Of a stretch of 64,000 bases of DNA, positions 4,338 through 47,853 are shown piece after piece. Source of the DNA: Candidatus Limnocylindrales bacterium (GTDB lineage Bacteria > Chloroflexota > Limnocylindria > Limnocylindrales > CSP1-4). The translations under genes were made by a program, and so were the position numbers. Position 1 is the first letter of the stretch, and each line of letters starts with the position of its first letter. The notes beneath the pieces were generated by a model that made no database searches, was not told the origin of the DNA, and saw nothing but the letters and a program-made list of their open reading frames with translations. The stretch is from NCBI GenBank assembly GCA_025450915.1, contig JANWLH010000124.1, positions 356 through 64,355 of the forward strand, given 5' to 3'.

Positions 4338-5360
4338 CTAGCGCCAGCCGAGGCCGGGCGCGACGAACTTGAGGATGCTCTCGATGGCGTGGGCGTTGTA
4401 CTCGACGCCGAGCTGGTTCGGGACCGTCAGCAGCAACGTGTCGGCGGCCTGGATCGCGGTGTCCTTGGCCAGCTCCGTGACCAGGACATCGGGCTCCGCG
4501 GCGTACGAGCGCCCGAAGATGGCCTTCGTCTGCGCATCGAGGTAGCCCACCTTGTCCGTGTCCTGGTTGCCTCGTCCGAAGTAGGCCCGGTCACGATCGT
4601 CGACAAGGGCAAAGATGCTCCGACTGACCGACACCCGCGGCTCGCGAGTGTGCCCGGCCGCGGCCCAGGCGGCACGGAACAGGCGGATCTGTTCCGCCTG
4701 GAGCTCGTGGAACGGCACGCCGGCGTCCTCGGTCAACAGCGTTGACGACATCAGGTTCAAGCCCTGCTGCCCGGTCCATTCGGCGGTCGCACGTGATCCG
4801 GCGCCCCACCAGATCCGGTCGCGCAGGCCCGGGGAATGGGGCTCGGGGCGCAGCAGGCCGGGTGGGTTCGGGAACATCGGCGACGGGTTGGGCTGGGCAA
4901 AGCCCGCGCCGGACAGGGCCTGGAGGAACACGTCCGCGTGCTGGCGGGCCATGTCCGCGTCGGTCTCGCCTTCGGACGGCGCGTAGCCGAAGTAGCGGAA
5001 GCCATCGATGACCTGTTCGGGGGACCCGCGGCTGATCCCGAGCTGAAGGCGACCGCCCGCGATCAGGTCGGCGGCGCCGGCATCCTCGACCATGTAGAGC
5101 GGGTTCTCGTAGCGCATGTCGATGACGGCGGTGCCGATCTCGATCCGCTTCGTCCGCGCCCCGATCGCCGCCAGGAGCGGGAACGGCGAGCCGAGCTGCT
5201 GGGCGAAGTGGTGGACCCGGAAATAGGCGCCGTCGGCACCCAGGTCCTCAACGGCCTCGGAAAGCTCGATCGACTGGATGAGCGCGTCGGCGCCCGACCG
5301 AACCTGCGAATACGGCGACGCCGACCAATGACCGAACGACAGGAACCCGATCTTCTTCAC
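4338..5360 (-). CDS. LLM-class flavin-dependent oxidoreductase (luciferase-like monooxygenase family)
   Basis: 340-aa ORF with GTG start. N-terminus MKKIGFLSFGHW..., plus AYFRVHHF and RLQLGISRGSPEQ, are typical of luciferase-like TIM-barrel proteins. Confidence 0.9.
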   Translation of the reverse strand: MKKIGFLSFGHWSASPYSQVRSGADALIQSIELSEAVEDLGADGAYFRVHHFAQQLGSPFPLLAAIGARTKRIEIGTAVIDMRYENPLYMVEDAGAADLIAGGRLQLGISRGSPEQVIDGFRYFGYAPSEGETDADMARQHADVFLQALSGAGFAQPNPSPMFPNPPGLLRPEPHSPGLRDRIWWGAGSRATAEWTGQQGLNLMSSTLLTEDAGVPFHELQAEQIRLFRAAWAAAGHTREPRVSVSRSIFALVDDRDRAYFGRGNQDTDKVGYLDAQTKAIFGRSYAAEPDVLVTELAKDTAIQAADTLLLTVPNQLGVEYNAHAIESILKFVAPGLGWR

Positions 5361-5438
5361 CGACCGATTCTAACCGTCGGCAGACTCACTCCCCCGACAG
5401 CTGGTCGCGGAGGCGGACGAGGAGGCCTTCGCCGGCGA

Positions 5439-6632
5439 TTAGAACTCGGCGGGCAGGTGCTTGAAGGCCCGGTCCGTGGGCGTGCTGATCCGCTCGATCG
5501 GCCCGGTGATCGCGTATTCGGGGATTCGGGCGAAGAGCTCCTCGAAGGCGATCCGGCCCTCGAGCCGGGCCAGCGGCGCCCCGATGCAATGGTGAATTCC
5601 CTCGCCGAACGTCAGGTGACGGAGCGGCTCGCGAGTGATGTCGAGGCGATCCGGGTCGGTCCAGCGCCGCTCGTCACGGCCGGCCGACGCCCAGATGAGG
5701 CTGACGTGGGCACCCTCGGGGATCGTCTGCCCGTCGACATCGACGTCTCGGACCGTCGTCCGGAGCAGCGTCTGGATGGGCGGATCGAAGCGGAGGAGCT
5801 CTTCGACGGCCGCGGGCAGGCGCTCCGGTTCCGTGCGCATCAGGGCGAGCTGATCGGGATTGCTGGCCAGGTGGTAGAGCGAGTTGGAGATCAGGCCGGC
5901 GGTGGTGGTGATCCCGGCCACGAACAACAGGACGGAGCTGCCCAGGATCTCGTCGTTGCTCAGCAGACCGTCCTTTTCGGCCTGGACCATCGTGCTGAGA
6001 AGGTCCTCCCGCGGCTGGACCCGCCGCGCGGCGGCGGCTTCGCCGACGTACGCCTGGAGCTTGTCACGCGCATGGAGGGTGCTCGCCGGCATCGCCGCCT
6101 GCCCGGGCACCCGGTGGAGCAGCTCGTCGAACCACTCGAGGAGCATCGCGTGGTCCTCGTCCGGGAAGCCGAGCCAGGTGCACACCATCCTGGCCGGCAG
6201 CGGCCGGGCGAGGTCCTGGGCGAAGTCCGCCCGGCCCGAGTCGGCGAACTGGTCGACGAGCGCGCGCGCAACGACCCGGACCGGCGGCTCGAAGCGCTCC
6301 CGGATCGCCGTCGGGTTGAACGCGTCCTTGAAGACCTTGCGCAGCCGGGTGTGGATCGGCGGGTCCACCCCGGCGAGGTCGCCCGCCGGCTGGAACAGCT
6401 GGTACGTGTCGTCGTGATCGTTGCCCTCGCGGCTCGAGTACGTCTGCCAGTCGCGGGCGACCCGCTGGACGTCGTCGAACCGCGAGAAGGCCCACACGTC
6501 GCGGCCGAGGTGGTGGTAGAGCGGCGCCTCATCGCGCAGCCGGCGATAGCCGGGGTACGGATCCTCGAGGGGCAGCAGAGGATCCCAGGGGATGGGCCCG
6601 TCCAGCAGGGCAACCTGGTCGGCCTGAGACAT
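5439..6632 (-). CDS. Cytochrome P450
   Basis: 397-aa ORF. Heme-thiolate loop FGEGIHHCIGAPLARLE, I-helix-like AGITTTAG and an ExxR motif (EELLR). GGGAG lies 7 nt upstream of ATG 6632. Confidence 0.95.
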   Translation of the reverse strand: MSQADQVALLDGPIPWDPLLPLEDPYPGYRRLRDEAPLYHHLGRDVWAFSRFDDVQRVARDWQTYSSREGNDHDDTYQLFQPAGDLAGVDPPIHTRLRKVFKDAFNPTAIRERFEPPVRVVARALVDQFADSGRADFAQDLARPLPARMVCTWLGFPDEDHAMLLEWFDELLHRVPGQAAMPASTLHARDKLQAYVGEAAAARRVQPREDLLSTMVQAEKDGLLSNDEILGSSVLLFVAGITTTAGLISNSLYHLASNPDQLALMRTEPERLPAAVEELLRFDPPIQTLLRTTVRDVDVDGQTIPEGAHVSLIWASAGRDERRWTDPDRLDITREPLRHLTFGEGIHHCIGAPLARLEGRIAFEELFARIPEYAITGPIERISTPTDRAFKHLPAEF

Positions 6633-6778: not shown

Positions 6779-7741
6779 GTGGACATCGGCCTGTACACCG
6801 ACTCGTTGACGGAGCACCGCTTCGAGCCAGCCCTCGACATCGCCGCGAGCAGTGGCGTCAGGTCCATCGAGATCGCCACGGGTGGCCAGTCGAGCGCCCC
6901 GCACCTGGATCTCGACGTGCTGCTCGGCAGCGCGGCCGCACGGACGAGCTTCCTCGCGGCGTTCGAGAGCCGCGGCCTGCGAATCGCGGCACTCAACTGC
7001 TCGGCCTGGCCGATGCACCCGGTCCTGGGTCCGGCCCATTCCGAGCTGATCAGCAAGACCCTTCGGCTGGCCGGGGAGCTGGGTGTCTCGAAGATCGTGT
7101 CGATGTCCGGCTGCCCCGGCGACGGGCCGGGGTCGACGACCTTCAACTGGACCTGGTATCCCTGGCCGGCCGACGCCGTCGCGCTCGGTCAGCGGAACTG
7201 GGGCGAGGGCGTCCGCTTCTGGACCGAGAAGGTCCGGCTCGCCGAGCACTGCGGGGTCGATCGGATTGCCTTCGAGCTCCATCCGCTCCACCTGGTCTAC
7301 AACGTCCCGACGGCCGTCGCGTTCCGATCCGAGGTCGGCGAGCGGGTCGGGGTGAACTTGGATCCGAGCCACCTCTTCTGGCAGCAGATGGACCCGATCG
7401 CGGTGATCCGGGCGCTGGGCCCGGCGATCCAGCATGTCCACATGAAGGACACGGAGATCGTCGCCGGCCAGGTCGCCCTCGCGGGCGTCCTCGACAACCG
7501 TCCGTTCGAGACGCCGGCCGAACGCGCCTGGCTGTTCCGGACCGTGGGCCGCATCCATCCAGCGGCGTGGTGGCAGGAGTTCGTCGCGGCCCTGCGCCTG
7601 GCGGGCTACGACGATTCGCTGTCGATCGAGCAGGAAGACCCCTATTCGAGCCAGGAAGATGGCGTCCGCGAGGCCGCGACGTTCATCGGGAGCCTGCTCC
7701 GGCAGCCCCTGCCAGGAGGCCCTGGATCGTCTCGAACATGA
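6779..7741 (+). CDS. Sugar phosphate isomerase/epimerase (xylose isomerase-like TIM barrel)
   Basis: 320-aa ORF. GTG 6779 is preceded by AAAGGAG (6766-6772). Typical AP-endonuclease-2/IolE-type blocks are present (IEIATGG..., FELHPLHLVYN, LDPSHLFWQ, HVHMKD, SIEQED). Confidence 0.85.
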   Translation: MDIGLYTDSLTEHRFEPALDIAASSGVRSIEIATGGQSSAPHLDLDVLLGSAAARTSFLAAFESRGLRIAALNCSAWPMHPVLGPAHSELISKTLRLAGELGVSKIVSMSGCPGDGPGSTTFNWTWYPWPADAVALGQRNWGEGVRFWTEKVRLAEHCGVDRIAFELHPLHLVYNVPTAVAFRSEVGERVGVNLDPSHLFWQQMDPIAVIRALGPAIQHVHMKDTEIVAGQVALAGVLDNRPFETPAERAWLFRTVGRIHPAAWWQEFVAALRLAGYDDSLSIEQEDPYSSQEDGVREAATFIGSLLRQPLPGGPGSSRT

Positions 7742-8555
7742 ACCGGGACGACTCCACGGCCCGCTCTTCCCAGGCGAACACGCAGCTCGTCAGGATGCCG
7801 TCGAAGCCGGCCGCCCTGAGGGCGCCGAAGCAGGCCTCGAAGTCGACCTCGCCCTGGCCGATGTCGAGGTGCTGGTGGACCCGGGCCGGCGAGCCCGGCG
7901 GGTTGACGATGTAGCGCAGGCCGGACGAGGCCCGGTGGTTCAGGACGTCGGCGACGTGGACCTGGGCCAGGACCGGCGCGGCGTAGGCGATCATCGCGGC
8001 GATGTCGTCGCCGAGGTAGTACGTGTGCGGCGCGCAATAGACGTAGCGGACGAGGTCGGAGTCGATGCCCCGGACCAGGTCGACGGCCTCGCGATTGTGC
8101 TCGATGAAGTCGTCCGGGTGGGCCTCCAGGTTCAGCCGGATCCCCTCCCGCTCGAAGATCGGCAGGAGCTCTTCCATCGAGCGCCAGAACTGGGCCTCGC
8201 TCTGGGCGGCCTGGTCGGGCCGGCCGTTGAACTCGGAGTTCATCGTCGGGCAGCCGACGTCGACGCACAGCTGGATCGCCCGCTTCCAGTAGCGCACCGC
8301 GGCCAGGCGCTCGTCCTCATCCGGGCTCGACCAGCGGTAGAGGGGCAGGATCGAGGCCAGCTCGAGGCCCGTTTCGCTCAGGGCGGTCCGGAACTCGCGA
8401 ACCTTGTCGCGGTCCGCCCGCGGGTGGACGAAGAACGGGATGAAGTCAGGCCGCGGCGAGAGCTCGATCGAGTCATAGCCGATCTCCGCCGCGATCCGGC
8501 AGACCTCACCGAACGGGCGCTCCCGGAGCATGTAGGGATCGAGGGCGATCTTCAT
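7683..8555 (-). CDS. Sugar phosphate isomerase/epimerase (xylose isomerase-like TIM barrel)
   Basis: 290-aa ORF. ATG 8555 is separated by one base from the stop of the upstream 874-aa gene (TGAtATG). Motifs YDSIELSP, LNLEAHPDDF, HVADV. Confidence 0.85.
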   Translation of the reverse strand: MKIALDPYMLRERPFGEVCRIAAEIGYDSIELSPRPDFIPFFVHPRADRDKVREFRTALSETGLELASILPLYRWSSPDEDERLAAVRYWKRAIQLCVDVGCPTMNSEFNGRPDQAAQSEAQFWRSMEELLPIFEREGIRLNLEAHPDDFIEHNREAVDLVRGIDSDLVRYVYCAPHTYYLGDDIAAMIAYAAPVLAQVHVADVLNHRASSGLRYIVNPPGSPARVHQHLDIGQGEVDFEACFGALRAAGFDGILTSCVFAWEERAVESSRFMFETIQGLLAGAAGAGSR

Positions 8556-8556: not shown

Positions 8557-11181
8557 TCAGGGCGCCTCCGCTAGCCGATGTGCCAGCCGGTCGCGAAGCG
8601 TCGTTCCGCTCGCCGCGATCCGTGCGGCCATGGCGGCCCGCACGGCCGGATCATCGATCGCCGCGATCGTCTCGAGCCATCGTACGGTGCCGTCGATGAC
8701 CGCGAGGATCGCCTCGGCGTCGTCGGCGGCGAGCTGGGGGTGATCCCGGACCTCGACGTAGACCGGCGAGGTGTGCGCCGCCATGCTCGTCATGAAGGCC
8801 GACTGGATCTGGTGCTTGCTGAGCGAGCGGGCGGCGATCCACGTTCCGGCCCGGACCTCGAGGATCGTGGCCAGGCGCAGCTCGGTGGTGCCGCTCGCGC
8901 TTGCCTCGCGGGCGACGACCCGCCCGTTCACGACCAGCTCGACGGCGCTGATCACGCGCTGGGCGGCCCGGGCCTGGACCAGGACCTCGAGCGTCCCGCC
9001 GGTCGCAGGCAGGGTCAGGACTGCACCCGGCTCGTGACCGTCGACGGACATCAGGATGACCGGTCCCGATGTGGCAAACGTGCGGCCGGCCCGGACGGCC
9101 GCTGACCAGGCCCCGAAGGTGGGCGCGACATCTTGCTCGAGGTGGGCATAGGTCCTGACAGCCCCCAGGGGCACTTCGGCCGACATCTTGTCGGTGCCTC
9201 CGACGACGGGCAGCCGGTAACCGCAGTTGAGGAACCGATACCACTCGAGAATCGACGGGTTGTCGAGGCCTGGCGCGAAGCACTGCATCTCGAGCGCGTC
9301 GATCCGGCCGGCGACGATGTCGGCGGCTATCTCGGCTAAGGGCAGCGGGAAGTGGGCGCCGACCACGAGGCCCCCGGCGGCGTGGCACTGGTCGGCCCAG
9401 TCCGCGAGGAGCTCCGTGACGGCCTGGCCGATCCGGCCCTCCGGCGCGCCGCCCGAGGCGAACGGGGCCACGGGCCGACTGGCCCCGAGGAGCGCCAGGT
9501 GGCCGAGCATGTTCTGGCGATTCTCCGACCCGACGATCACCGAATGCCGGCCGCTCGGGTCGGGCTGCGAGCCCCAGGCGACGTCGGGCACGTTGATGAA
9601 ATGGTCGCCGAGCTGGGTGGCCAGGAGGTGGACGAACGTGACGTCCTCGGCCGCCGCCTGGAGGAGGGCCGTGGACGGCGCCAGGAAGTGGACGTGCGAG
9701 TCGGACGTCACCCAGCCGGCGGGCCGCAGGTCGATCGGGCGATCGAGCTCGATCGACAGGTCCCGCGTGCCGGGTCCGACCGTCAGGGTGGTCCGGACCG
9801 GGCGGTGGTCGAAGCCCTTGACGACTTCGACGTCGACCGCGCCCAGCGGCAGGTCGACCTGGAACGCACCCGGCACATAGGCGTACGTGTCGGCCCCGAG
9901 CACGAGACCGGCGCCCGTGTCCTCGAAGATGCCCGGGTTGACCTCGTCGCGATGGCCGAGCGGCGGAAGGTAGCGGCCGTCGGCGGACACGAAGCGGACC
10001 CGTGCAGGAGCCGGCTCCCCGCCGGCGGACACGGACACCGAGACCCGGACCGATGGTTCGGGCAGCTGCCTGATCGAGAGCGTGCCGTCCGGACTCGAGA
10101 GCCCGCCCGCCGGACGGCCCGGCAGGTCCCCGGCGGCGAGCGTCCAGCTGCCGAAGGTGATCCTGGCGTCCGGCGCCAGGGCGACATCGACGATCCGGCC
10201 CGCGAGCGGTTCGACGGCCCGGCCCCAGCCGGCGGGAGTGGTCGAGCTGCCGGCTCCGGACCACCCGGCCGCCCGCTGGAGCGGGCGCGAGCGGATCGCC
10301 AGGCCGAGGTCGACGCCGGGCAGGCTGTCGGCCTCGTCGTCGCCCGTCACGAGCAGCTCGCGGCGGGGCATCAGGCCCAGGGGGCTGGCGGTGCCGTAGA
10401 AAACGGTGAGGCCGGCCAGCACGACGTCGGTTCCCGGCCTCCCCTCCCCCAGCGAGGTGAGCCGCAGGCTGGTGGGCGCTTCATCCTCCGCCAGCGCGAT
10501 CGCGTGCAGCCAGAGGGTCAGGTCGTCGGTCGCCGACGGGACGTAATCCCGGGCGCCGGACTGGCCGGCAGCCCACGTTCCGGGCAGCGTCGTCAACGGG
10601 CCCGCGTGTCCGGCCGGGGCGAGCCGGCCGGGCTCCTGGCGGGCGAACGGGCCGCGCCAATCGATGACCTCGTCGGCCCGGTGCCCGACGGCCTCGAAGG
10701 GCAGGAATCCCCAGCCGATGATCCCGTCGGCGATCTCGAACCGGCGCCGGACGTCGAGGGTGCGGGTCCGGCCGTTCGTCAAGGCAAGCTCGTAGCGGGC
10801 CAGCGGCTCACCGGTCGGCAGGACCCAGCCGACGGGCATCCCGGCTGGTCGATCCCCCCTCGGATCGCGCCAGCTGTCGGCGAAGTGGGCGACCACCAGG
10901 TGACCGGGGCGCGCGCCGCCGGGGGCCTTGCTGGACAGCTCGAGGCTGACGCCGTCGCCGGCGATGACCCAGCGACGGCCTGCGGCACGTGTCCCCAGGC
11001 TGAAGGGCAATCCCCGCAGGACCACGTCACCTTCGGGCAGCCGCCCGAGGCCGGCCCGGTACAGCGGATGGAGGCGTGCGCCAAGCTCGGCGTCGGAAGC
11101 ATTCCAACCGTTGGCCAGGTCGACCGGTCTTGCCAGTGGACTGACCAGGTGCAGGGCTGGGGCGGAGCGTCCGGTGGTCAT
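8557..11181 (-). CDS. Large PHP-domain metallohydrolase-like protein (CehA/McbA-like), paralogue A, 874 aa; N-terminal ~480 aa unassigned
   Basis: Single long ORF with GGAAGG upstream of ATG 11181. The C-terminal half has TSDSHVHF (DxHxH), GSENRQNMLGHLALLG, VVGAHFPLP and GGTDKMS, typical of PHP/CehA-McbA-type hydrolases. It is preceded by a beta-sandwich-like segment (RVRFVSADGRYLPP...VDVEVVKGF). There is no signal peptide. Confidence 0.85.
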   Translation of the reverse strand: MTTGRSAPALHLVSPLARPVDLANGWNASDAELGARLHPLYRAGLGRLPEGDVVLRGLPFSLGTRAAGRRWVIAGDGVSLELSSKAPGGARPGHLVVAHFADSWRDPRGDRPAGMPVGWVLPTGEPLARYELALTNGRTRTLDVRRRFEIADGIIGWGFLPFEAVGHRADEVIDWRGPFARQEPGRLAPAGHAGPLTTLPGTWAAGQSGARDYVPSATDDLTLWLHAIALAEDEAPTSLRLTSLGEGRPGTDVVLAGLTVFYGTASPLGLMPRRELLVTGDDEADSLPGVDLGLAIRSRPLQRAAGWSGAGSSTTPAGWGRAVEPLAGRIVDVALAPDARITFGSWTLAAGDLPGRPAGGLSSPDGTLSIRQLPEPSVRVSVSVSAGGEPAPARVRFVSADGRYLPPLGHRDEVNPGIFEDTGAGLVLGADTYAYVPGAFQVDLPLGAVDVEVVKGFDHRPVRTTLTVGPGTRDLSIELDRPIDLRPAGWVTSDSHVHFLAPSTALLQAAAEDVTFVHLLATQLGDHFINVPDVAWGSQPDPSGRHSVIVGSENRQNMLGHLALLGASRPVAPFASGGAPEGRIGQAVTELLADWADQCHAAGGLVVGAHFPLPLAEIAADIVAGRIDALEMQCFAPGLDNPSILEWYRFLNCGYRLPVVGGTDKMSAEVPLGAVRTYAHLEQDVAPTFGAWSAAVRAGRTFATSGPVILMSVDGHEPGAVLTLPATGGTLEVLVQARAAQRVISAVELVVNGRVVAREASASGTTELRLATILEVRAGTWIAARSLSKHQIQSAFMTSMAAHTSPVYVEVRDHPQLAADDAEAILAVIDGTVRWLETIAAIDDPAVRAAMAARIAASGTTLRDRLAHRLAEAP

Positions 11182-11204
11182 GGACTCGACCCTTCCGACC
11201 AGGA

Positions 11205-11234
11205 TTGACGCGCGGCAGACGGCGATGATACCTT
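11205..11234 (+). promoter_or_regulatory. Candidate promoter of the iolD operon (TTGACG-18-TACCTT)
   Basis: -35-like TTGACG at 11205-11210 and -10-like TACCTT at 11229-11234. The same -35 hexamer and the same spacing to the operator are seen at 19089 and 23931. Confidence 0.35.
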
Positions 11235-11237
11235 CAC

Positions 11238-11251
11238 TGCAATCGGTTGCG
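11238..11251. promoter_or_regulatory. LacI-type operator candidate, site 2 (TGCAATCGGTTGCG)
   Basis: Lies 4 nt downstream of the -10-like hexamer, in the 83-bp divergent region between paralogue A and iolD. The half-sites TGCAATC/GGTTGCG are near-palindromic. Confidence 0.5.
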
Positions 11252-11264
11252 CAAGGAGACCACG

Positions 11265-13151
11265 GTGAAGACTGTCCGGCTGACTGTGGGCCAGGCCGTT
11301 GTCCGCTTCTGCGCGAGCCAGTACGTCGAGCGGGACGGGGTCGAGCACCGGTTCATCGCCGGCTTCTGGGGAATCTTCGGCCATGGCAACGTGGCCGGCC
11401 TCGGCCAGGCGCTCGAGGAGCTCGGCGACGCCGAGGCGATGCCCTTCTACAAGCCGCAGAACGAGCAGGCCCAGGTCCACATTGCGACCGCCTTCGCCAA
11501 GCACCACAACCGGCTCCAGGCATACGCCTGCATCTCGTCGGTCGGGCCCGGCGCCCTGAACATGATCACCGGCGCCGCCACCGCGACGGTCAACCGGATC
11601 CCGGTATTGCTCTTCCCCAGCGACTACTTCGCCAACCGGGTTCCCGACCCGGTCCTCCAGCAGGTCGAGCACCCGATCGAGCGGGACACCAGCGTCAACG
11701 ACGCGTTCCGCCCGGTCTCCCGGTTCTTCGACCGCATCTCGCGGCCCGAGCAGCTGCTGGCCTCGCTGCCAGCCGCGTTCCGGGTGTTGACGGATCCCGC
11801 CGAGACCGGTGCCGCGACGGTGTCGCTGCCCGAGGACGTGCAGGCCGAGGCCTTCGACTGGCCGGTTGCCTTCTTCGAGCGGCGGGTCTGGCGGGTCCGC
11901 CGGCCGCTCCCCGAGGCCGCCGAGCTGGCCGACGCAGTGGGCTTGATCAAGACCGCCAAGGCGCCGGTCATCGTGAGCGGCGGCGGCACGATCTACTCCG
12001 AGGCAACCGGCGAGCTGGCCGAGATCGCCAGCCGCTTCGGGATCCCGGTTGTCGAGACCCAGGCGGGCAAGGGCGCGCTGGCCTGGGATCATCCCCAGAA
12101 CATGGGCCCGGCGGGGACGAACGGCGGCGTGGCAGCCAATCGCCTGCTCCGGGACGCCGACCTGGTGATCGGCGTCGGTACCCGGATGGGCGATTTCGTG
12201 ACGGCCTCGCAGACGTCGTTCCAGAATCCCGCGGTCGCGATCGTCGGCATCAATGTCGCGCCGGTCGACGCCCACAAGATGCGCGCCGTGCCGGTCGTGG
12301 CCGACGCGCGGGAGGCCCTCCGGGCACTCGTCAGCCAGCTCGCCGCGGCGGGCTACGCCGGGACGTCGGCGAGCTACCGGGAGCGCGCCAGTCGGTTCAA
12401 GCAGGAATGGGATTCGATCGTCAGTGCGCTGCGCACGGTCAACGGCGCGCCGGGCGACCTGGGCCAGGCCGAGGTGATCGGCGTGGTCAACGAGGTGGTC
12501 GGCGGGCACGCGGCGGTGATCTGCGCGGCCGGCAGCCTGCCCGGTGACCTGCTCCGCCTGTGGCGCGTCAACGATCCCAAGGCATATCACGTCGAGTACG
12601 GCTTCTCGTGCATGGGCTACGAGATCGCGGCCGGCCTCGGCGTGCGGCTCGCCGAACCGGACCGGGAGGTCGTCGTGATGGTCGGCGACGGCTCCTACCT
12701 GATGATGAACTCGGAGATCGTCACCGCCGTGGCCGAAGGTCTCAAGCTGACGATCGTGGTCCTCGACAACCACGGCTTCCAGTGCATCCTGGCGCTCCAG
12801 CGCTCGGTTGGCGTGCCCGACTTCGGCAACGAGCTCCGCTTCCGCGACAAGGGCACAAATCGCCTGACCGGTCCGTACGTGCCCGTCGACTTCCGGCTGC
12901 ACGCCGAGGCGATGGGTGCCCTGGCCCTCCTCGCCCGGACGCCGGACGAGCTGCGCGACGCGCTGGCCAAGGCCCGCGCCGCCGACCGGGTCAGCGTCAT
13001 CCTCGTGCCCACCGACCCCGAAAAGCGGGTGGGCGGCTTCGACTCGTGGTGGGACGTGCCGGTGGCCGGCGCGAGCCAGCAGGACGGCGTGCGGCGCGCC
13101 CGGGCTGGCTACGACGAGGCTCGGGTCCTCCAGCGGACCGACCTTCATTGA
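11265..13151 (+). CDS. iolD: 3D-(3,5/4)-trihydroxycyclohexane-1,2-dione acylhydrolase (ThDP-dependent, IolD)
   Basis: Lies in ORF 11247..13151. GTG 11265 is preceded by AAGGAG (11252-11257). N-terminus VKTVRLTVGQAVVRF..., GIFGHGNV, and a ThDP motif region (GDGSYLMMNSEIVT) are typical of IolD. Confidence 0.92.
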   Translation: MKTVRLTVGQAVVRFCASQYVERDGVEHRFIAGFWGIFGHGNVAGLGQALEELGDAEAMPFYKPQNEQAQVHIATAFAKHHNRLQAYACISSVGPGALNMITGAATATVNRIPVLLFPSDYFANRVPDPVLQQVEHPIERDTSVNDAFRPVSRFFDRISRPEQLLASLPAAFRVLTDPAETGAATVSLPEDVQAEAFDWPVAFFERRVWRVRRPLPEAAELADAVGLIKTAKAPVIVSGGGTIYSEATGELAEIASRFGIPVVETQAGKGALAWDHPQNMGPAGTNGGVAANRLLRDADLVIGVGTRMGDFVTASQTSFQNPAVAIVGINVAPVDAHKMRAVPVVADAREALRALVSQLAAAGYAGTSASYRERASRFKQEWDSIVSALRTVNGAPGDLGQAEVIGVVNEVVGGHAAVICAAGSLPGDLLRLWRVNDPKAYHVEYGFSCMGYEIAAGLGVRLAEPDREVVVMVGDGSYLMMNSEIVTAVAEGLKLTIVVLDNHGFQCILALQRSVGVPDFGNELRFRDKGTNRLTGPYVPVDFRLHAEAMGALALLARTPDELRDALAKARAADRVSVILVPTDPEKRVGGFDSWWDVPVAGASQQDGVRRARAGYDEARVLQRTDLH

Positions 13152-13227: not shown

Positions 13228-14466
13228 ATGCCAGGACCTGGGATCGAGCTAATCGGCGCGGAAGAGACCGCCGAAGTCCTCGAGGTGATCTCGAGCGGCT
13301 TCCTGAGCCGCTACGGGCCGTCCGACAATCCCGCATTCGGTGCGAAGGTCCACCGCATCGAAGGCGAGGTGGCCAGGCTGGCCGGCGTTCGCTTCGCGCT
13401 GGGCCTCAGTGGCGGCGGCTCGGCCGGGCTGTGGATCACGCTGCTCAGCCTGGGCGTCGGGGCCGGCGACGAGGTGATCGTGCCCGGCTTCACGTTCGTG
13501 GCCTCCATCTCGGCGATCGTCTATACCGGCGCGACGCCGGTCCTCGCCGAGGTCGACCGGAGCTTCGACCTGGACCCCGTCGATGTCGAGGCTCGGATCA
13601 CGCCGCGGACCAAGGCGATCCTCGTCGTCCACATGCTCGGCGGCCCGGCCAGGCTCGACGAGCTCAAGGCAATCGCCGACAAGCACGGCATCCCGCTCGT
13701 CGAGGACTGCGCCCAGGCGTTCGGGGCCACCTATCACGGGGTGGGCGTGGGTGGCATCGGGGCCGCCGGGGTGTACAGCTTCAACGAGTACAAGACGATC
13801 ACCTGCGGTGACGGCGGGATGATCGTCACCGACGACGAGGCACTCTACGAGCGGGCCTTTGCGATGCACGACCAGGGCCACGCCCCGGACCGCCTCGAGT
13901 CGAAGTACGCGCCCCGGCCGTTCCTGGGCATGAACTTCCGGATGACCGAGCTGTCCGGCGCGGTCCTGCTGGCCCAGGTTCGCAAGCTCGACATGATCAC
14001 CGCGCACCTGCGGGCCAACAAGGAGATCGTCCAGCAGTTCCTCGAGGAGGAGCCGGCGATCGAGTTCCGGACGCTGCCCGACCCCGACGGCGACCTGGCG
14101 ACCCACCTTGTCGTGGTCCTGCCGTCGGCCGACATCGCGACCAAGGTGGCCAGGGAGGTCGGCTCGATCACCCTGTCCGAATCGGGCTGGCACGTCTACA
14201 GCCGGATGAATCACGTCCTCGAGCGGCGGACCGTCACCGGCAAGGGCTGCCCGTTCAATTGCGAGATCGCCGACCACTCCCATGGTGATTACCGCATCGG
14301 CATGCTGCCCCAGACCGACGCCCTCCTCGAGCGCTCGATCAGCATCGGGATCGGCGTGCGCGATGCCAATCTCGCGCCGTTCGGCCTGCGCATGCGCGAT
14401 GGCGCAGACGAGGCCCGGACGACCGCCCTGACCTTCCGGGGCGCAGTCCAGAAGCACCTGGCGTGA
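13228..14466 (+). CDS. DegT/DnrJ/EryC1/StrS-family PLP-dependent aminotransferase
   Basis: ATG 13228 is preceded by GAGGGAGAG. Blocks GDEVIVPGFTFVASI, LVEDCAQAFGA and SFNEYKTITCGDGGMIVT (PLP lysine context) are present. It lies between iolD and iolC on the same strand. Confidence 0.9.
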   Translation: MPGPGIELIGAEETAEVLEVISSGFLSRYGPSDNPAFGAKVHRIEGEVARLAGVRFALGLSGGGSAGLWITLLSLGVGAGDEVIVPGFTFVASISAIVYTGATPVLAEVDRSFDLDPVDVEARITPRTKAILVVHMLGGPARLDELKAIADKHGIPLVEDCAQAFGATYHGVGVGGIGAAGVYSFNEYKTITCGDGGMIVTDDEALYERAFAMHDQGHAPDRLESKYAPRPFLGMNFRMTELSGAVLLAQVRKLDMITAHLRANKEIVQQFLEEEPAIEFRTLPDPDGDLATHLVVVLPSADIATKVAREVGSITLSESGWHVYSRMNHVLERRTVTGKGCPFNCEIADHSHGDYRIGMLPQTDALLERSISIGIGVRDANLAPFGLRMRDGADEARTTALTFRGAVQKHLA

Positions 14467-14482: not shown

Positions 14483-15445
14483 GTGACGGACGCGTTCGTT
14501 ATTGGCCGGATCGGCGTCGACCTGACGCCGGAGGCGCCGCGCACCTCCCTGGCGGATGCCACGAGGTTCGTCCGCGCGATCGGCGGCTTTGCCGGGAACA
14601 TCGGCATCGGCCTGGCCAGGCTGGGCATCTCGACCGCGGTCATCTCGAGCATCGGCGACGACGGTCACGGCGATCACGTGCGGCAGGAGCTGGCCACCGA
14701 GGGAATCGACGTTGGCAGCCTGCTCACCCGACCTGGGTCCCGGACCCAGGTCGCCTTCTTCGAAGCGTGGCCGCCGGAGCATTTCCCGGTGACCTTCTAT
14801 CGGCCGGATCCACCGCCGGATACCCAGCTGGCGATGGCCGACGTCCCGCTGGCCGCCCTGGAGGTGGCCCCGATCGCGATCTTCTCGGGAACGCTCCTGG
14901 CCGCCGAGCCCGCCCGCTCAACGACCCTCGAGATGCTCAACGCCCGATCCGCGGCACGCCCGCGCCGGGGCACGTCATGGACGATTCTCGACCTCGACTG
15001 GCGGCCGACGCTGTGGGCTGATCCGGGGGCGTACCCGGCGCTCATCGACGCGGCCGCTCAGCTCAGCGACGTGCTCATCGGCAGCGATTCCGAGTTCGCC
15101 GCAGCAGGCCTGCGACCGGGCGAGGCCATCACGGCCGGGCGGGCGCTGACGGTCCTCAAGCACGGGCCCGGTGGCGTCACACTGCTGGCCGACGGCTCGC
15201 GCCGCTCGTTGCCGGGGATTGCCGTCGAGGTCGTCTGCGGCCTCGGGGCCGGCGATGCCCTCACGGCGGCGTTCGCGGCCGGGTTGCTCGCCGGGCTCGA
15301 TCCGATCCGCGCTCTCGAGCGTGGCAACGCAGCCGGTGCGATCGTGGCGTCGCGCCTGATGTGCAGCGCGGCCATGCCGATCCCCGACGAAATCGACAAG
15401 CTGCTGACCACGAGTCCGATCCGGCCCAAGGAGATCCGCCTGTGA
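14483..15445 (+). CDS. iolC: 5-dehydro-2-deoxygluconokinase (PfkB family, IolC)
   Basis: 320-aa ORF with GTG start. N-terminus VIGRIGVDLTPE..., GGFAGNIGIGLARLG, and C-terminal PfkB motif GAGDALTAAF. Confidence 0.88.
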   Translation: MTDAFVIGRIGVDLTPEAPRTSLADATRFVRAIGGFAGNIGIGLARLGISTAVISSIGDDGHGDHVRQELATEGIDVGSLLTRPGSRTQVAFFEAWPPEHFPVTFYRPDPPPDTQLAMADVPLAALEVAPIAIFSGTLLAAEPARSTTLEMLNARSAARPRRGTSWTILDLDWRPTLWADPGAYPALIDAAAQLSDVLIGSDSEFAAAGLRPGEAITAGRALTVLKHGPGGVTLLADGSRRSLPGIAVEVVCGLGAGDALTAAFAAGLLAGLDPIRALERGNAAGAIVASRLMCSAAMPIPDEIDKLLTTSPIRPKEIRL

Positions 15446-16368
15446 CGCGTCCTGATGAGCCCCGGGAACTGACGATCCACCCGGCGAAGCTGCCGTCCCG
15501 GCTGCCGCCCGAGATGCTCCACATCAAGCCGGGTGCCGATCGTGTCGTGGCCACGGATCCGGCGCGTTCGGGCTGGCGCTATCTCTCGTTTCGATCGTTC
15601 GGGCTGGCCGAGGGCGAGGTCGCGCTGCTCGATTCGCCGGAGCAGGAAGCGGCCATCGTCACGATCTCCGGTGGCGGCGTCGAGATCGCCCTGGATGGCC
15701 GCGCCAACCTCGAGCTGACCGGCCGGCCGTCGGTCTTCGAGGGCCTGCCCTGGAGTGCCTACATCCCGGCCGGGACCACGGCCCGGATCATCGGCCGGCC
15801 ACTGCCCGGCCAGCGGTCCGTCGTCGCAATCGCCCAGGCACCCCTGACCGGCCGGACGGGGATTGCCCGCGAGCCGATCGTGGTCGCCCCGAACGACGTC
15901 CAGGTCGAGCTCAGGGGCGCCGGCAACTGCACTCGCCAGGTCAACAACATCATGATGCCGGACTTCCCCGCCGACCGGCTCCTGATCTGCGAGGTCTTCA
16001 CGCCGTCGGGCAACTGGTCCGGCTGGCCACCGCACAAGCACGATGTCGACGATCCGCCCCGCGAGGCAGTCCTCGAGGAGACCTACTTCTACCAGTTCCG
16101 GCGGCCCGAGGCCTGGGCCATCCAGCGGATCTATCACCGTGACGGGTCACGCGACTTGCTGCTGCCCGTCCACCACGGCGACCTGGTGATCGTCGACCAG
16201 GGGTACCACCCGTTCATCGCCACGCCGGGCTACGACGCCTATTTCATCAACGCACTGGCCGGCGACCGGCGGACGATGGCCAACACCGACGACCCCGACC
16301 TCGCCTGGGTCCGGACGCTGTGGCCGGACATGGAACCCGATCCTCGCCTGCCGCTCGTCAAGCCGTGA
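15442..16368 (+). CDS. iolB: 5-deoxy-glucuronate isomerase (IolB)
   Basis: GTG 15442 overlaps the iolC stop (GTGA), with AAGGAG at 15428-15433. Blocks AGNCTRQVNNI, SGNWSGWPPHKHD and GYHPF are characteristic of IolB. Confidence 0.9.
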   Translation: MTRPDEPRELTIHPAKLPSRLPPEMLHIKPGADRVVATDPARSGWRYLSFRSFGLAEGEVALLDSPEQEAAIVTISGGGVEIALDGRANLELTGRPSVFEGLPWSAYIPAGTTARIIGRPLPGQRSVVAIAQAPLTGRTGIAREPIVVAPNDVQVELRGAGNCTRQVNNIMMPDFPADRLLICEVFTPSGNWSGWPPHKHDVDDPPREAVLEETYFYQFRRPEAWAIQRIYHRDGSRDLLLPVHHGDLVIVDQGYHPFIATPGYDAYFINALAGDRRTMANTDDPDLAWVRTLWPDMEPDPRLPLVKP

Positions 16369-17333
16369 TCGCGAACGGCTCCGGCGACGTCTCGCCGGCG
16401 TCCTCGGACGTGGCCGCGCGCGACGGCCTGCGCCGCCGCCTCCAGCGCCTCGGCGGCCCGGATGGGGTGATGGCGGGCATCGCCATCGACCATCGCGACA
16501 GCCTGCGGGTCACGCTCGAGAAGCGCGGTGTCAGCGGCCTGGCGATCGGCGACATGCGCCGGCTCAAGCTCGCCCTCACCCGGGTCCTCGCACCGGCGGC
16601 CACCGCCCTGATGCTCGACGCCGAGCTGGGGGCGCTCGCATTCGAGCAGGGCGCGGTGCCCGCCTCGACCGGGCTGATCATGCCCCTCGAGGCGCAGGGC
16701 TACGAGGTGGCCGGGGATGGCCGGACCACCAGCCTGCTCGGCGACTTCTCACCGGCCCGGGCCGTCGTGTACGGCGCCGATGCCTGCAAGCTGCTCCTGC
16801 CCTATCGCGCCGACGACGAGCCGTCGGCTGCGGCCCAGGATGCCCTTGCGGCGGCCGTGGCGAGGAGCTGCCACGCACTGGGCATGCCGCTGGTCGTCGA
16901 GCCGGTCGTCTACCGCTGGTCGACCGAGTCGGAGACGCAGTACGCGGCCGCGTTTCCTGGACTCCTGCTCAGCGCCGTCGGACGGCTCCAGCCGCTCGGC
17001 GCAGACCTCCTCAAGGTGGCCTTCCCGGTGCTCGACCTCGGCGCGACCGGCGAGCTCGGGGCGATCGACGCCTGCCGGGCGCTGGCCGACGCGTGCGCCG
17101 AGACGCCGTGGGTGCTGCTCGGAGCCGGTGTCGACGTCGACACGTTCGTCGAACAGATCCGGCTCGCCGGCTCGGCCGGTGCATCCGGGTTCCTCGCCGG
17201 TCGCGGGATCTGGGGCCCCGCCCTGGCGGTCGATCCGGGCGAGGCCGAGAGAATCGCCCGCGACGTGGCCTTGCCGGCCTTCGAACGCTGCCGGGAGGTC
17301 GCCCGGCGGACCGGCCGGCCGCTCCGGGCCTGA
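16365..17333 (+). CDS. Class I aldolase of the LacD/DUF2090 type; candidate 5-dehydro-2-deoxyphosphogluconate aldolase (IolJ analogue)
   Basis: GTG 16365 overlaps the iolB stop (GTGA). Blocks AIDHRDSL, KLLLPY and GADLLKVAFPV (Schiff-base lysine context as in tagatose-bisphosphate aldolase LacD). Its position directly after iolC-iolB fits this role. Confidence 0.75.
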   Translation: MIANGSGDVSPASSDVAARDGLRRRLQRLGGPDGVMAGIAIDHRDSLRVTLEKRGVSGLAIGDMRRLKLALTRVLAPAATALMLDAELGALAFEQGAVPASTGLIMPLEAQGYEVAGDGRTTSLLGDFSPARAVVYGADACKLLLPYRADDEPSAAAQDALAAAVARSCHALGMPLVVEPVVYRWSTESETQYAAAFPGLLLSAVGRLQPLGADLLKVAFPVLDLGATGELGAIDACRALADACAETPWVLLGAGVDVDTFVEQIRLAGSAGASGFLAGRGIWGPALAVDPGEAERIARDVALPAFERCREVARRTGRPLRA

Positions 17334-18205
17334 TGCCGCCGATCGTGGCCGGGGCCGTGACGGCCGTCGCCTATGCCATCTCGACGCTCACCTCGGCGCG
17401 GGCCAGCCGGATCGCCGGTCCCGTGCCGTCGGTGGCCGGGGTGATGGTGGTCGGGTCGATCCTGTTGCTGCCGGTTGCCCTGCTCGTCACGCCGCTGCCG
17501 ACGGTGCCCGCCGTGGCCGCTTCGACGTTCGCCTGGTCGGCCGTCGCCGGCGCGGCCAACGTCGGCGGCCTCCTGCTCGCCTACGCGGGCTACCGGATCG
17601 GCGCGGTGGGCGTCGTCTCGACGATCGGCTCGACCGAAGGGGCGATCGCTGCGGTCATCTCGGTCCTGGCCGGGCAGGTCCTGGCCGCGGGGTCCGGGCC
17701 GGCCCTGGCGCTGGTCGCGATCGGGGTGATGCTGGCAGCGACCGGCGGTGGCCATGAGCTCGAGGAGGGCCGGACCATCGAGCGTCGGCAGTCGCTGCGG
17801 GCGGCCGGCTTCGCGGGCTGTGGCGCCCTGCTCCTGGGCATCGGGCTGTTCGTGGCCGGCCAGGTGAGCACGACCCTGCCGGCGGCGTGGGTCGTCCTGC
17901 CGGGCCGAATCGTCGGGGTCGCGCTGGTGACGATTCCGGTGACCCTGATGGGTCGCCTGCGGATCCCGCGGGCGGCCCTGAGGTACGTCCTTGCGACGGG
18001 CCTGGTCGAGGTGATCGGCCTGACCTCGTTCTCGATCGGCGCCCGGCAGGACATCGCGGTGACCTCGGTCCTCGGCTCGATGTTCGCGCCGCTGGCGGCG
18101 CTCGCGGCCTTCGTCCTGTTCAAGGAACGCCTCGCCCGGCGGCAGGTGCTGGGAATCGCCCTGGTCGTGGCCGGGATCGCGATCCTCGGTGCGCTGACCG
18201 TCTAG
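17333..18205 (+). CDS. EamA/DMT-family membrane transporter
   Basis: ATG 17333 overlaps the preceding stop (TGATG). About 10 hydrophobic helices in two EamA-like halves. Confidence 0.8.
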   Translation: MPPIVAGAVTAVAYAISTLTSARASRIAGPVPSVAGVMVVGSILLLPVALLVTPLPTVPAVAASTFAWSAVAGAANVGGLLLAYAGYRIGAVGVVSTIGSTEGAIAAVISVLAGQVLAAGSGPALALVAIGVMLAATGGGHELEEGRTIERRQSLRAAGFAGCGALLLGIGLFVAGQVSTTLPAAWVVLPGRIVGVALVTIPVTLMGRLRIPRAALRYVLATGLVEVIGLTSFSIGARQDIAVTSVLGSMFAPLAALAAFVLFKERLARRQVLGIALVVAGIAILGALTV

Positions 18206-18232
18206 CCCGTAGCTCAGGAAGGCTCACTCCTC

Positions 18233-19075
18233 ATGCAGCTGGTCTACAACTCGAACTCGACGATGCACCTGCCGGCGCTGATGCAGATCCGGCTGGCCCG
18301 GGAGACCGGCTGGGACGGGGTCTTCCTGCGCGAGGAGCATCTCCGCCGGTATCTCGCCCAGGGCTATGACCTGGCCAGCCTCCGATCAGCGCTGGCCGGG
18401 CTCGAGCCGGTCAACCTGGGGGCCCTGGCCGACGTCGAACGCTGGCAGCCTGACGAGCGGTCGAACATGCTCCGCGAGGCGGACGCGCTGACGGAGCTGG
18501 CAGCCGGTATCGGCGCCACGTTCATCCAGCTCCTCAGCGGGCCGGTCCAGCCGGGCGGCACGTATCGCGGACCGGGCGGCCTGTCGCGCGCGGAACGGCG
18601 CGACGTGACGGCGAGCGCGCTGCGCGCCGTTGCTCGCACCGGCGCAGCGCGCGGGATTCGCTACTACCTCGAACCGATCGCCTGGACGCCCCTGGCGCCG
18701 CTCGCCGAGGCCGTCGAGGCGGTCGATGCAGCGGAGGCCGACAACATCGGCCTGGTCCTCGACTTCTGGCACCTCTGGCAGGCCGGAACGACCCCCGACG
18801 AGGTCGCCCGGCTCGATCCGCGGATCATCTTCGGGGTCGATTTCGCCGATTCGCTCGGTGCACCCGGTTCGCCCGACCCGGACCAGCTCAGCCGGCGGGT
18901 GTGGCCCGGTGAAGGTTCGATGCCCCTCGCCGAATGGGTTGACGCCGTGCGTGCCACCGGCTTCGATGGCTGGTGGGACAATGAGCTGTACAGCCCGTTT
19001 CATTGGGAGCGGGCGGACCCGGTCGCCGTGGCAAGCGGGCTTCGCGAGGTGCTCCTCGAGGTGCTCCGGACCTGA
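18233..19075 (+). CDS. Sugar phosphate isomerase/epimerase (xylose isomerase-like TIM barrel)
   Basis: 280-aa ORF with ATG start preceded by AGGAAGG. Blocks YYLEPIAW, LVLDFWHLW and DNELYSP are typical of the family. Confidence 0.85.
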   Translation: MQLVYNSNSTMHLPALMQIRLARETGWDGVFLREEHLRRYLAQGYDLASLRSALAGLEPVNLGALADVERWQPDERSNMLREADALTELAAGIGATFIQLLSGPVQPGGTYRGPGGLSRAERRDVTASALRAVARTGAARGIRYYLEPIAWTPLAPLAEAVEAVDAAEADNIGLVLDFWHLWQAGTTPDEVARLDPRIIFGVDFADSLGAPGSPDPDQLSRRVWPGEGSMPLAEWVDAVRATGFDGWWDNELYSPFHWERADPVAVASGLREVLLEVLRT

Positions 19076-19088: not shown

Positions 19089-19117
19089 TTGACGATGTGC
19101 AGGGCCGATGCTACGGT
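19089..19117 (+). promoter_or_regulatory. Candidate promoter of the LacI-type regulator gene (TTGACG-17-TACGGT)
   Basis: -35-like TTGACG at 19089-19094 and -10-like TACGGT at 19112-19117, followed by operator site 3. Confidence 0.35.
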
Positions 19118-19122
19118 CGGTG

Positions 19123-19136
19123 CGCAATCGGTTGCT
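19123..19136. promoter_or_regulatory. LacI-type operator candidate, site 3 (CGCAATCGGTTGCT)
   Basis: The core GCAATCGGTTGC is identical to site 2. It lies 6 nt after the -10-like hexamer and about 10 nt upstream of the regulator start, consistent with autoregulation. Confidence 0.5.
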
Positions 19137-23930: not shown

Positions 23931-23959
23931 TTGACGGGCCATATACCAGACGCTAGCAT
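23931..23959 (+). promoter_or_regulatory. Candidate promoter of the Pot-type importer operon (TTGACG-17-TAGCAT)
   Basis: -35-like TTGACG at 23931-23936, a 17-nt spacer, and -10-like TAGCAT at 23954-23959, in the 104-bp divergent region shared with paralogue B. Confidence 0.4.
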
Positions 23960-23961
23960 CG

Positions 23962-23975
23962 TACAAACGGTTGCA
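23962..23975. promoter_or_regulatory. LacI-type operator candidate, site 4 (TACAAACGGTTGCA)
   Basis: Begins 3 nt after the -10-like hexamer and shares CGGTTGCA with sites 2 and 3. Confidence 0.45.
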
Positions 23976-24008
23976 CAAGAGGATGCTTGATGCCCGGATC
24001 TCGAGCCT

Positions 24009-25136: not shown

Positions 25137-25160
25137 CGACATTGATTGGAGGAGGATGGA

Positions 25161-26339: not shown

Positions 26340-26362
26340 GGCATCGACTAGCCAAACCCGAG

Positions 26363-27280: not shown

Positions 27281-27302
27281 GGGGACCAGCCCGCTCGAGA
27301 CG

Positions 27303-28133: not shown

Positions 28134-28143
28134 ACGAGCCCGC

Positions 28144-29145: not shown

Positions 29146-29184
29146 TTCCCTGTCACTCCGTCCAAGCCAAGGAGGTTCACCCTG

Positions 29185-45898: not shown

Positions 45899-45976
45899 TG
45901 CGGGATCACGGCTGGCGGCACGGGCTCATGGTTCCTGATTGTCGGAGATACGACGCACCTTCATTGGGCACCGGCG

Positions 45977-46753: not shown

Positions 46754-46754
46754 C

Positions 46755-47801: not shown

Positions 47802-47853
47802 CGCTCGGATGCCTCCCTGGGGCAACGGGGTCTGCCTGACGCGAACCTGCCAG

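Follow-up and report, generated by a model that had tools for sequence, protein, structure and literature searches.

A CehA/McbA-family metallohydrolase in an operator-linked, aminotransferase-extended inositol gene cluster of Candidatus Limnocylindrales

The window analysed here is a 64,000-nucleotide stretch of Candidatus Limnocylindrales bacterium (assembly GCA_025450915.1, contig JANWLH010000124.1; GC content 70%), in which a gene for an 874-amino acid (aa) protein lies head-to-head with the inositol-catabolic gene iolD. We tentatively propose that this protein, a member of the CehA/McbA metallohydrolase family, is a hydrolase of the cytoplasm under repressor control, one that takes a substituent off an imported conjugate of inositol or inosamine, ahead of an aminotransferase-extended Iol pathway—a reading we prefer, whilst giving it somewhat less than an even chance. 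The substrate, the bond, the order of steps and the regulation are all things that we infer, and the type of bond cleaved is held with less confidence than the role itself. That copies of the hydrolase sit within an iol cluster points to an undescribed step, feeding an inositol- or amino-inositol-containing compound into the pathway.

The open reading frame and its four metal-binding motifs, as described in the original prediction, are all present: TSDSHVHF (aa 491-498), GSENRQNMLGHLALLG (aa 551-566), VVGAHFPLP (aa 606-614) and GGTDKMS (aa 661-667). Its GC content at third codon positions (GC3) is 0.89, typical for real genes of this window, and on these codon-position statistics we take it to be a real gene; full-length homologues number 430. 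AlphaFold2 gives a model of the whole protein with a predicted local distance difference test (pLDDT) score of 77.6 and a predicted template-modelling score (pTM) of 0.76, rising to 86 and 0.88, respectively, for aa 1-375 alone; the resulting domain layout is given in Table 1. Hydropathy analysis bears out the claim that the protein has neither signal peptide nor transmembrane segment (the highest Kyte-Doolittle 19-residue mean is 1.57, with 0.53 in the N-terminus), and for this reason we predict a cytoplasmic location.

For the catalytic domain, the NCBIfam model NF038032 (CehA_McbA_metalo) matches aa 489-810 with 134.1 bits, against a cutoff of 80, and over the full extent of the profile (positions 1-315 of 315); scores for the 860-aa paralogue described below, McbA and CehA are 143, 174 and 190 bits. 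It is the only NCBIfam model to match at E <= 1, with none of the Iol models (IolA-J; Thermotoga IolM/N/O) doing so. Since ‘CehA/McbA family metallohydrolase’ is the name that NCBI already gives to such proteins, the catalytic family is a known one. The earlier description of the protein as ‘PHP/CehA-McbA-like’ stands for its second half, with the PHP half finding no counterpart in Pfam: there is no match at E <= 1 for the 874-aa protein, PF02811 (PHP) included, nor at E <= 0.1 for 50 full-length family members. Sequence and profile searches of the PDB return no match, and Foldseek finds only generic Ig-like/beta-sandwich matches to the full-length model at E > 1e-4, with no PHP structure amongst them, an outcome we treat as uninformative.

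The putative metal ligands are D494, H496, H498, E553, H561, H610, D664 and H803, of which all save E553 are invariant across CehA, McbA and the 874-aa family in a joint alignment, E553 being invariant within the 874-aa family only. Other positions invariant in the same alignment are W490, E512, D628, Y648, N652, R676, Y678, W692 and W781. In terms of McbA numbering, H396/H398 correspond to H496/H498, H467 to H561, H504 to H610 and H687 to H803. McbA has three histidines that are reportedly essential, H467, H477 and H504 (PMC8292978, citing Zhu et al. 2018); two of them have counterparts here, H561 and H610, with H477 replaced by V571 and not conserved in CehA either. Given the invariance of the ligands, the catalytic machinery is predicted to be intact. 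In tblastn comparisons against plasmids, McbA and CehA align to aa 372-811 only, at 23-26% identity; the beta-sandwich at aa 378-480 therefore belongs to a shared family core, and the ~480 residues originally left without a family shrink to aa 1-372, which match no characterised domain.

The 83-bp region that the gene shares with iolD is as first described, and so is the recurrence of its LacI-type operator, with further copies ahead of the LacI gene and between the paralogue and an ATP-binding cassette (ABC) importer operon (Table 1). All three operators share one layout on the + strand, reading TTGACG, 17-18 bp, TAnnnT, 2-3 bp, operator (11205-11253, 19089-19136 and 23931-23977), with the operator just downstream of the -35/-10 arrangement, the classic position for a repressor. 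As an aside, its threefold occurrence may reflect a design of repressible promoter common to this lineage of Chloroflexota. Read by eye, the 83-bp region has on its + strand TTGACG (11205-11210), 18 bp and TACCTT (11229-11234), and on its - strand a -10-like hexamer, TATCAT (11225-11230), that could be the promoter of the hydrolase gene, the operator overlapping the region upstream; a promoter scan of the same 83 bp finds no consensus sigma-70 site.

A scan of one genome per species yielded 518 relatives, of which the best 74 loci were examined; all are from Chloroflexota, mostly Candidatus Limnocylindrales metagenome-assembled genomes (MAGs), bar one labelled Verrucomicrobiia. The operator core GCAANCGNTTG is found upstream of 67 of these 74 homologues, which ties the gene to the operator as had been proposed. 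Across 1.34 Mb of related loci the core occurs 130 times, only three times inside mapped reference genes and mostly just upstream of hydrolase, LacI or aminotransferase genes. We regard this conservation as strong phylogenetic footprinting, though within loci of one lineage, and it argues that the 874-aa gene is a member of a LacI-type inositol regulon, repression itself being presumed.

Downstream, the stop codon of the hydrolase gene and the ATG of the xylose-isomerase-like TIM-barrel gene, here ‘TIM_7683’, are indeed separated by a single base (TGAtATG), making the latter a probable operon partner; 27 of the 29 orthologous loci have it, with identities of 78-97%, and it gives only weak matches to the UlaE, CbiR, IolO and IolE models. 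On the other side, the genes lying between the two hydrolase copies are, in order, iolD, a DegT-type aminotransferase, iolC-like, iolB, a LacD-type aldolase, an EamA permease, a second TIM-barrel gene, LacI and iolG-like. The iolC-like kinase scores 254 bits against TIGR04382, below its cutoff of 300; iolB scores 251 bits against TIGR04378, above its cutoff of 205, and the aldolase 190 bits against NF009498. The best PDB match of the aminotransferase is KdnA (5k8b, 260 bits), and its family includes scyllo-inosose aminotransferases. A canonical IolA is absent from the cluster according to NCBIfam models, as is a canonical IolE, TIGR04379 giving at most 25 bits for any of the three TIM genes in the window; the TIM gene at 18233-19075 is a possible non-orthologous inosose dehydratase. 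As a side observation, the aminotransferase could also convert malonate semialdehyde or 5-deoxyglucuronate, compensating for the missing IolA.

We surveyed gene order by mapping the proteins of the window onto loci of at least 12 kb (62 in total: 29 + 9 + 24). In the 29 loci of the 874-type clade, the hydrolase gene stands head-to-head with an iolD-aminotransferase-iolC-iolB-aldolase operon and is followed by the TIM gene (aminotransferase in 29, TIM_7683 in 27, iolD in 25). The 860-type clade, with nine loci, is head-to-head with the ABC operon (ABC in 8, LacI in 9), and a third clade, ~50% identical and with 24 loci, with a LacI-ABC-dehydrogenase-TIM arrangement (LacI in 24, ABC in 22, aminotransferase in 19, iolD-like in 15). 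The third-clade cluster encodes a short-chain dehydrogenase/reductase (SDR), an IolD-like thiamine pyrophosphate-dependent enzyme, an HpcH aldolase, an SMP-30 lactonase, a DegT aminotransferase, three GFO/IDH/MocA oxidoreductases and two TIM barrels; to judge from these annotations, the set is probably complete for the catabolism of a cyclitol-like compound. The most constant partner of the 874-type hydrolase is not iolD or iolG, but the DegT-type aminotransferase (29/29 loci) together with the PotD-like transporter; a pairing that points to an amino-cyclitol rather than to plain inositol or an inositol phosphate.

The paralogue, ‘BIG860’, which the original prediction did not mention, lies ~10 kb from the 874-aa gene, convergent with the iolG-like gene and head-to-head with the ABC importer operon. 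In related MAGs, too, one contig can carry a pair of paralogues, L005/L034 and L006/L036 being examples. The binding protein of the importer (25146-26339) matches PotD/PotF in the PDB, and PotD in NCBIfam with 39 bits, below cutoff. The operon is followed at 28144-30186 (+) by genes for an F420-type luciferase-like (LLM) oxidoreductase (202 bits in NCBIfam, below cutoff) and a Zn-dehydrogenase (29185-30186), the best NCBIfam match of which is IolM, scyllo-inosose 3-dehydrogenase, with 229 bits against a cutoff of 450, threonine dehydrogenase scoring nearly as high. The LLM genes, the Zn-dehydrogenase and a cytochrome P450 found elsewhere in the window could act on the substrate itself, demethylating or oxidising it, for instance.

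Drawing these observations together, the hydrolase, its paralogue and the probably co-transcribed TIM-barrel enzyme would belong to a regulon under LacI repression that serves an inositol-type compound, most likely an amino-inositol. The PotD-like ABC transporter would import a cationic cyclitol conjugate, from which the metal centre of the hydrolase, by activating water, would take off a carbonyl-linked substituent (amide, carbamate or ester) or, less likely, a phosphoryl or glycosyl one. The inosamine thereby exposed would be converted to scyllo-inosose by the DegT-type aminotransferase, or the inositol oxidised by IolG, and the product would enter the TIM-barrel dehydratase, IolD, IolB and IolC, and then the aldolase. 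We favour an amine-bearing cyclitol because of the constant aminotransferase, the polyamine-type binding protein and the IolD or IolD-like ring-cleaving enzymes, and a carbonyl-linked substituent because the only characterised members of the NF038032 family cleave such bonds, namely carbamate esters (PMC8292978).

The association with iol genes is confined to the three Limnocylindrales clades (at least ~50% identity). Of the earlier suggestion that homologues would be found beside iol genes, the part concerning close relatives is borne out by iolD in 25 of the 29 orthologous loci; beside more distant relatives, at 31-42% identity, no iol genes are seen in 80 metagenome loci, where the recurrent neighbours are SDR, Zn-dehydrogenase, an enolase-superfamily (MR_MLE) dehydratase, FGGY and GHMP kinases, DUF2961 and outer-membrane barrels. 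Nor are there iol neighbours on three informative contigs of distant representatives (three others being too short), which instead carry M24/creatinase-type peptidases, amidohydrolases, a beta-lactamase-type hydrolase and a GH31 gene with a CUT1 sugar transporter. The same is true of two alphaproteobacterial plasmids (~33-37% identity), one with its copy beside a major facilitator superfamily transporter, a LacI regulator and GH88, the other beside an ABC transporter, a serine hydrolase and a glutamine-synthetase-like gene. A tight link to an aminotransferase is seen at one distant locus only (L079), where the DegT gene overlaps the hydrolase gene by 4 bp; at another (L158) the aminotransferase lies ~4 kb upstream.

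With metagenome loci, distant contigs and plasmids all free of iol neighbours, we reject an iol association for the family as a whole, and the cyclitol role does not extend to it; the family overall appears to belong to sugar-type catabolic loci, with the cyclitol context probably a clade-specific specialisation. Separately, the hydrolase gene at L079 (1-22547 of ENA contig ctg240355), translationally coupled to its DegT neighbour, has around it a complete urease cluster together with M24/creatinase-type peptidases, an amidohydrolase and an ABC transporter; the setting is suggestive of a substrate rich in nitrogen, of ureido- or guanidino-type, in that lineage.

Several points weigh against the proposed role in cyclitol de-conjugation. 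All of its functional steps rest on genomic context, and the iol-linked homologues come from a single lineage, Limnocylindrales MAGs, so that the many loci are not independent events; relatives at 31-42% identity lack iol neighbours, and amongst the distant loci only L079 and L158 have an aminotransferase nearby. The operators are placed for + strand promoters, and it is from the sharing of short intergenic regions, and on no other basis, that we infer control of the hydrolase genes on the - strand. The closest solved relative of the aminotransferase, at 260 bits, is KdnA—an 8-amino-Kdo transaminase, of the aldehyde-sugar-acid kind—with nucleotide-sugar aminotransferases far behind it and scyllo-inosose aminotransferases reaching only ~140-150 bits. 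Lastly, the fold search with the full model recovered no PHP structure, and the PHP superfamily consists mostly of phosphoesterases, which favours the first of the alternatives that follow.

The enzyme might instead be an inositol-phosphate or aminocyclitol-phosphate phosphatase, its PHP-like tri-/di-metal centre cutting a phosphomonoester in the cytoplasm, possibly after the TIM partner has acted as a phosphodiesterase, and the inositol passing to IolG. The solved PHP-fold enzymes are predominantly phosphoesterases, the HxH/E/H/H/D/H ligand set is present, and the idea agrees with an alternative raised in the original prediction; TIM_7683 also matches the AP_endonuc_2-type phosphodiesterase CbiR, though weakly (27.7 bits) and far under the 105-bit cutoff. 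We nonetheless think a phosphatase unlikely: the PHP model of Pfam finds no match, a co-regulated binding protein of PotD/PotF type suits cations over polyanions, release of phosphate leaves the constant aminotransferase unexplained, and the activity known for NF038032 members is towards carbamate esters (PMC8292978). Also unlikely, in our view, is a glycoside-type or other carbohydrate-active hydrolase that cuts a sugar-cyclitol bond (glucosaminyl-inositol, for example) and uses its N-terminal jelly-roll as a carbohydrate-binding module (CBM). It would suit those distant members found beside GH31 with a CUT1 ABC system, GH88, DUF2961, FGGY kinase and MR_MLE dehydratase, as well as the GFO/IDH/MocA and TIM-barrel neighbours, which resemble oxidative glycoside-cleavage systems. 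The N-terminal fold matches to CBM51, CBM15 and agarase beta-sandwiches that lend themselves to this idea are weak, however (E > 0.01, template-modelling score (TM) < 0.4), Pfam reveals no sequence relation to any CAZy family, and we know of no glycosidase with a PHP-like metal centre.

Quite improbable is a core ring-processing step, whether hydrolysis of a diketo-cyclitol by analogy with Thermotoga IolN—a comparison drawn from NCBIfam names—or replacement of the missing IolE, with an IolM-like dehydrogenase and an IolO-like TIM barrel completing a second inositol route. The cluster does lack a canonical IolE and IolA, and the dehydrogenase at 29185-30186 (229 bits to IolM) and TIM_7683 (26 bits to IolO) offer candidates, but both scores are far under the cutoffs of 450 and 300, and the former gene does nearly as well against threonine dehydrogenase; every clade already has IolD or an IolD-like enzyme for ring cleavage, and two to three paralogous copies per genome are better explained by diversification of substrate range than by one core step. 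We regard as very improbable a carbamate or xenobiotic esterase like CehA and McbA, unrelated to cyclitols and with a cluster position devoid of functional meaning. Such an enzyme would share the NCBIfam domain and the conserved catalytic residues, as this one does, but the 23-26% identity to McbA/CehA starts at aa 372, no transposon context accompanies the gene, unlike mcbA and cehA, and synteny and operator alike have persisted whilst the proteins diverged to 50% identity. The carbaryl hydrolases moreover carry a signal peptide, and are periplasmic where tested, in Pseudomonas sp. C5pp (PMC8292978).

Turning to the N-terminal module (aa 1-372), neither Pfam nor sequence and profile searches of the PDB provide a match. 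The original prediction had called for a fold search of the N-terminal half; run on the model of aa 1-375, it turned up no well-characterised domain that would explain the region. The only PDB match with E < 0.001 is AziU2-U3 (8gs1_C; E 2.8e-4, probability 1.00), with a TM of 0.60 on the 199-residue target and 0.35 on the query, a root-mean-square deviation of 6.8 A and 13% identity. AziU2-AziU3 is an aziridine-forming enzyme of azinomycin, the biology of which is unrelated, and the likeness is one of fold with no sequence-level signal; we take it as a lead only, not as a domain assignment. A profile of the module finds 795 relatives amongst 1.84 billion representative proteins. Within the 150 matches listed, the full-length ones are ~825-900 aa long (a few up to ~1,000), and all have the same architecture, with the module at or near the N-terminus; it is on this account that the module appears confined to this protein architecture, and that we reject the notion of a mobile domain.

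The most conserved stretch of the module is an insert at aa 153-219 (nt 10525-10725), in the region of which W157, G158, F162, H167, W175, G177, P178, G185, G191, G194, P200, D212, P215 and D220 are invariant amongst close homologues. Despite this conservation, it is modelled with low confidence in both AlphaFold2 predictions, and may be a lid or interface that becomes ordered only with a substrate or partner.

Table 1. Coordinates of the hydrolase gene, its domains and the surrounding cluster
Feature	Position	Strand	Basis and remarks
TIM gene TIM_7683, xylose-isomerase-like (AP_endonuc_2)	7683-8555	-	PF01261, 176 bits
CehA/McbA-family metallohydrolase gene, BIG874	8557-11181	-	874 aa; open reading frame and translation
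C-terminal helical hairpin, aa 819-872	8566-8727	-	AlphaFold2 model
CehA/McbA metallohydrolase domain, aa 489-810	8752-9717	-	NF038032 match
PHP-like alpha/beta barrel, aa 490-705, inside metallohydrolase domain		-	AlphaFold2 model
Second beta-sandwich, aa 708-811, bearing H803		-	AlphaFold2 model
Ig-like beta-sandwich ahead of catalytic domain, aa 378-480	9742-10050	-	AlphaFold2 model, tblastn, alignment with McbA/CehA
N-terminal module, beta-rich (jelly-roll/CBM-like), family-specific, aa 1-372	10066-11181	-	AlphaFold2 model
Divergent control region, hydrolase gene/iolD	11182-11264		83 bp
LacI-type operator (putative), near-palindrome TGCAATCGGTTGCGCA	11238-11253		hydrolase/iolD control region
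iolD (trihydroxycyclohexane-1,2-dione (THcHDO) acylhydrolase), first gene of divergent operon	11265-13151	+	TIGR04377, 884 bits (cutoff 715); GTG start 11265
DegT/DnrJ/EryC1-type aminotransferase, between iolD and iolC-like	13228-14466	+	NCBIfam and PDB matches; ATG 13228
iolC-like kinase, iolB, LacD-type aldolase	14483-17333	+	NCBIfam; iolB and aldolase starts uncertain
EamA-type permease and AP_endonuc_2 TIM gene (18233-19075)	17093-19075	+	Pfam; permease start uncertain
Second operator copy (putative), TGCAATCGGTTGCGCA	19121-19136		ahead of LacI gene, after TTGACG-N17-TACGGT
LacI-family regulator	19146-20243	+	PF00356, PF13377
iolG-like inositol 2-dehydrogenase	20248-21291	+	TIGR04380, 336 bits (cutoff 355)
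860-aa paralogue, BIG860	21322-23904	-	BLASTP, 56% identical full-length to 874-aa protein; NF038032, 143 bits
Third operator copy (putative), variant TACAAACGGTTGCACA	23962-23977		BIG860/ABC intergenic, 2 bp past TTGACG-N17-TAGCAT promoter-like site
PotABCD-like ABC importer (ATPase with TOBE, PotD-like binding protein, two permeases), LLM oxidoreductase, Zn-dehydrogenase	24009-30186	+	Pfam, PDB, NCBIfam

Of the remaining content of the window, AP_endonuc_2 TIM genes are found at 6779-7741 (+), 7683-8555 (-) and 18233-19075 (+), the called 3' ends of the first two overlapping by ~59 bp. Beyond these, at 4338-6632 (-), lie a second LLM gene and the cytochrome P450, the latter present in only 5 of the 29 orthologous loci. 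Sugar-catabolic modules unrelated to the hydrolase are found at 44969-59290 and 62308-63528. Amongst them are a YhfZ-type GntR regulator accompanied by an SDR, a glyoxalase-fold protein and a CUT1 ABC system; an apiosidase-like glycosidase at 52510-53790; genes for ribulose-phosphate 3-epimerase, DeoC aldolase, FGGY kinase, 2-hydroxyacid dehydrogenase and class II aldolase, together in one block; and a Dak1 kinase subunit.

Limnocylindria are a widespread soil and freshwater lineage of Chloroflexota, known almost only from MAGs, and our searches of the literature on the CehA/McbA family, on Limnocylindria and inositol, and on scyllo-inosamine catabolism found no description of this system. Its private ~370-residue N-terminal module, cytoplasmic location, triplicated paralogues and embedding in an operator-controlled, aminotransferase-extended inositol cluster therefore appear to be undescribed. 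To our knowledge, the CehA/McbA family has been known only from pesticide (carbamate) hydrolases on mobile elements; here a deep branch of it is seen in a physiological context that is stable, its operator conserved and its paralogues numbering two to three per genome, and this provides concrete candidates for a natural substrate. A cluster that lacks canonical IolE and IolA, and that has a DegT-type aminotransferase, a polyamine-type importer and F420-type oxidoreductases, suggests an undescribed route in Limnocylindria for inositol- or inosamine-containing compounds. Were the proposed role correct, it would provide a new enzyme function, a new entry point to cyclitol catabolism and a first functional handle on the ~370-residue domain.

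A bolder extension of these ideas, which we put forward as doubtful, is that the ~870-aa proteins constitute a new class of cytoplasmic carbohydrate- or cyclitol-active metallohydrolases, in which the N-terminal jelly-roll selects the substrate. The three Limnocylindrales clades would then open an undescribed aminocyclitol route of PotD-like import, de-conjugation, transamination to inosose and IolD-type ring cleavage, acting on a compound abundant in soil, for instance an N-substituted inosamine, the glucosaminyl-inositol of mycothiol turnover or an aminoglycoside-type antibiotic. If true, it would also show which natural function, predating pesticides, CehA and McbA had been recruited from.

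Compared with the carbaryl hydrolases CehA (Rhizobium/Sphingobium) and McbA (Pseudomonas), the 874-aa protein has in common the catalytic domain and the beta-sandwich preceding it, whereas its first ~370 residues are unrelated, and it lacks their signal peptide and periplasmic targeting. Whilst mcbA and cehA are transposon-borne pesticide genes, the gene described here is chromosomal, has no insertion-sequence or transposon neighbours, and lies in what would be a LacI-controlled, sugar-type regulon; its missing signal peptide, an alignment that begins only at aa 372 and the lack of mobile elements together set it apart from CehA/McbA orthologues in the narrow sense. With the phosphoesterases of the PHP superfamily it has in common a putative HxH...E...H...H...D...H ligand pattern and, by prediction, an alpha/beta barrel (aa 490-705), although the canonical C-terminal DxH is replaced by D664-K together with the distant H803.

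The canonical Iol pathway (IolG, E, D, B, C, J, A) is represented here by iolD, iolB, iolC-like, aldolase and iolG-like genes, a repressor and an operator. The cluster differs from both Iol and Moc systems in having no canonical IolE or IolA, a transporter that is PotD-like rather than of the ribose-binding-protein type, and a LacI-type regulator; we know of no described Iol or Moc system that includes a CehA/McbA-type hydrolase. A further parallel is with the metabolism of rhizopine and scyllo-inosamine (Moc/Mos), where MosB is a DegT-type aminotransferase (PMC6668481), and the DegT-type enzyme of the present cluster could likewise interconvert inosamine and inosose.

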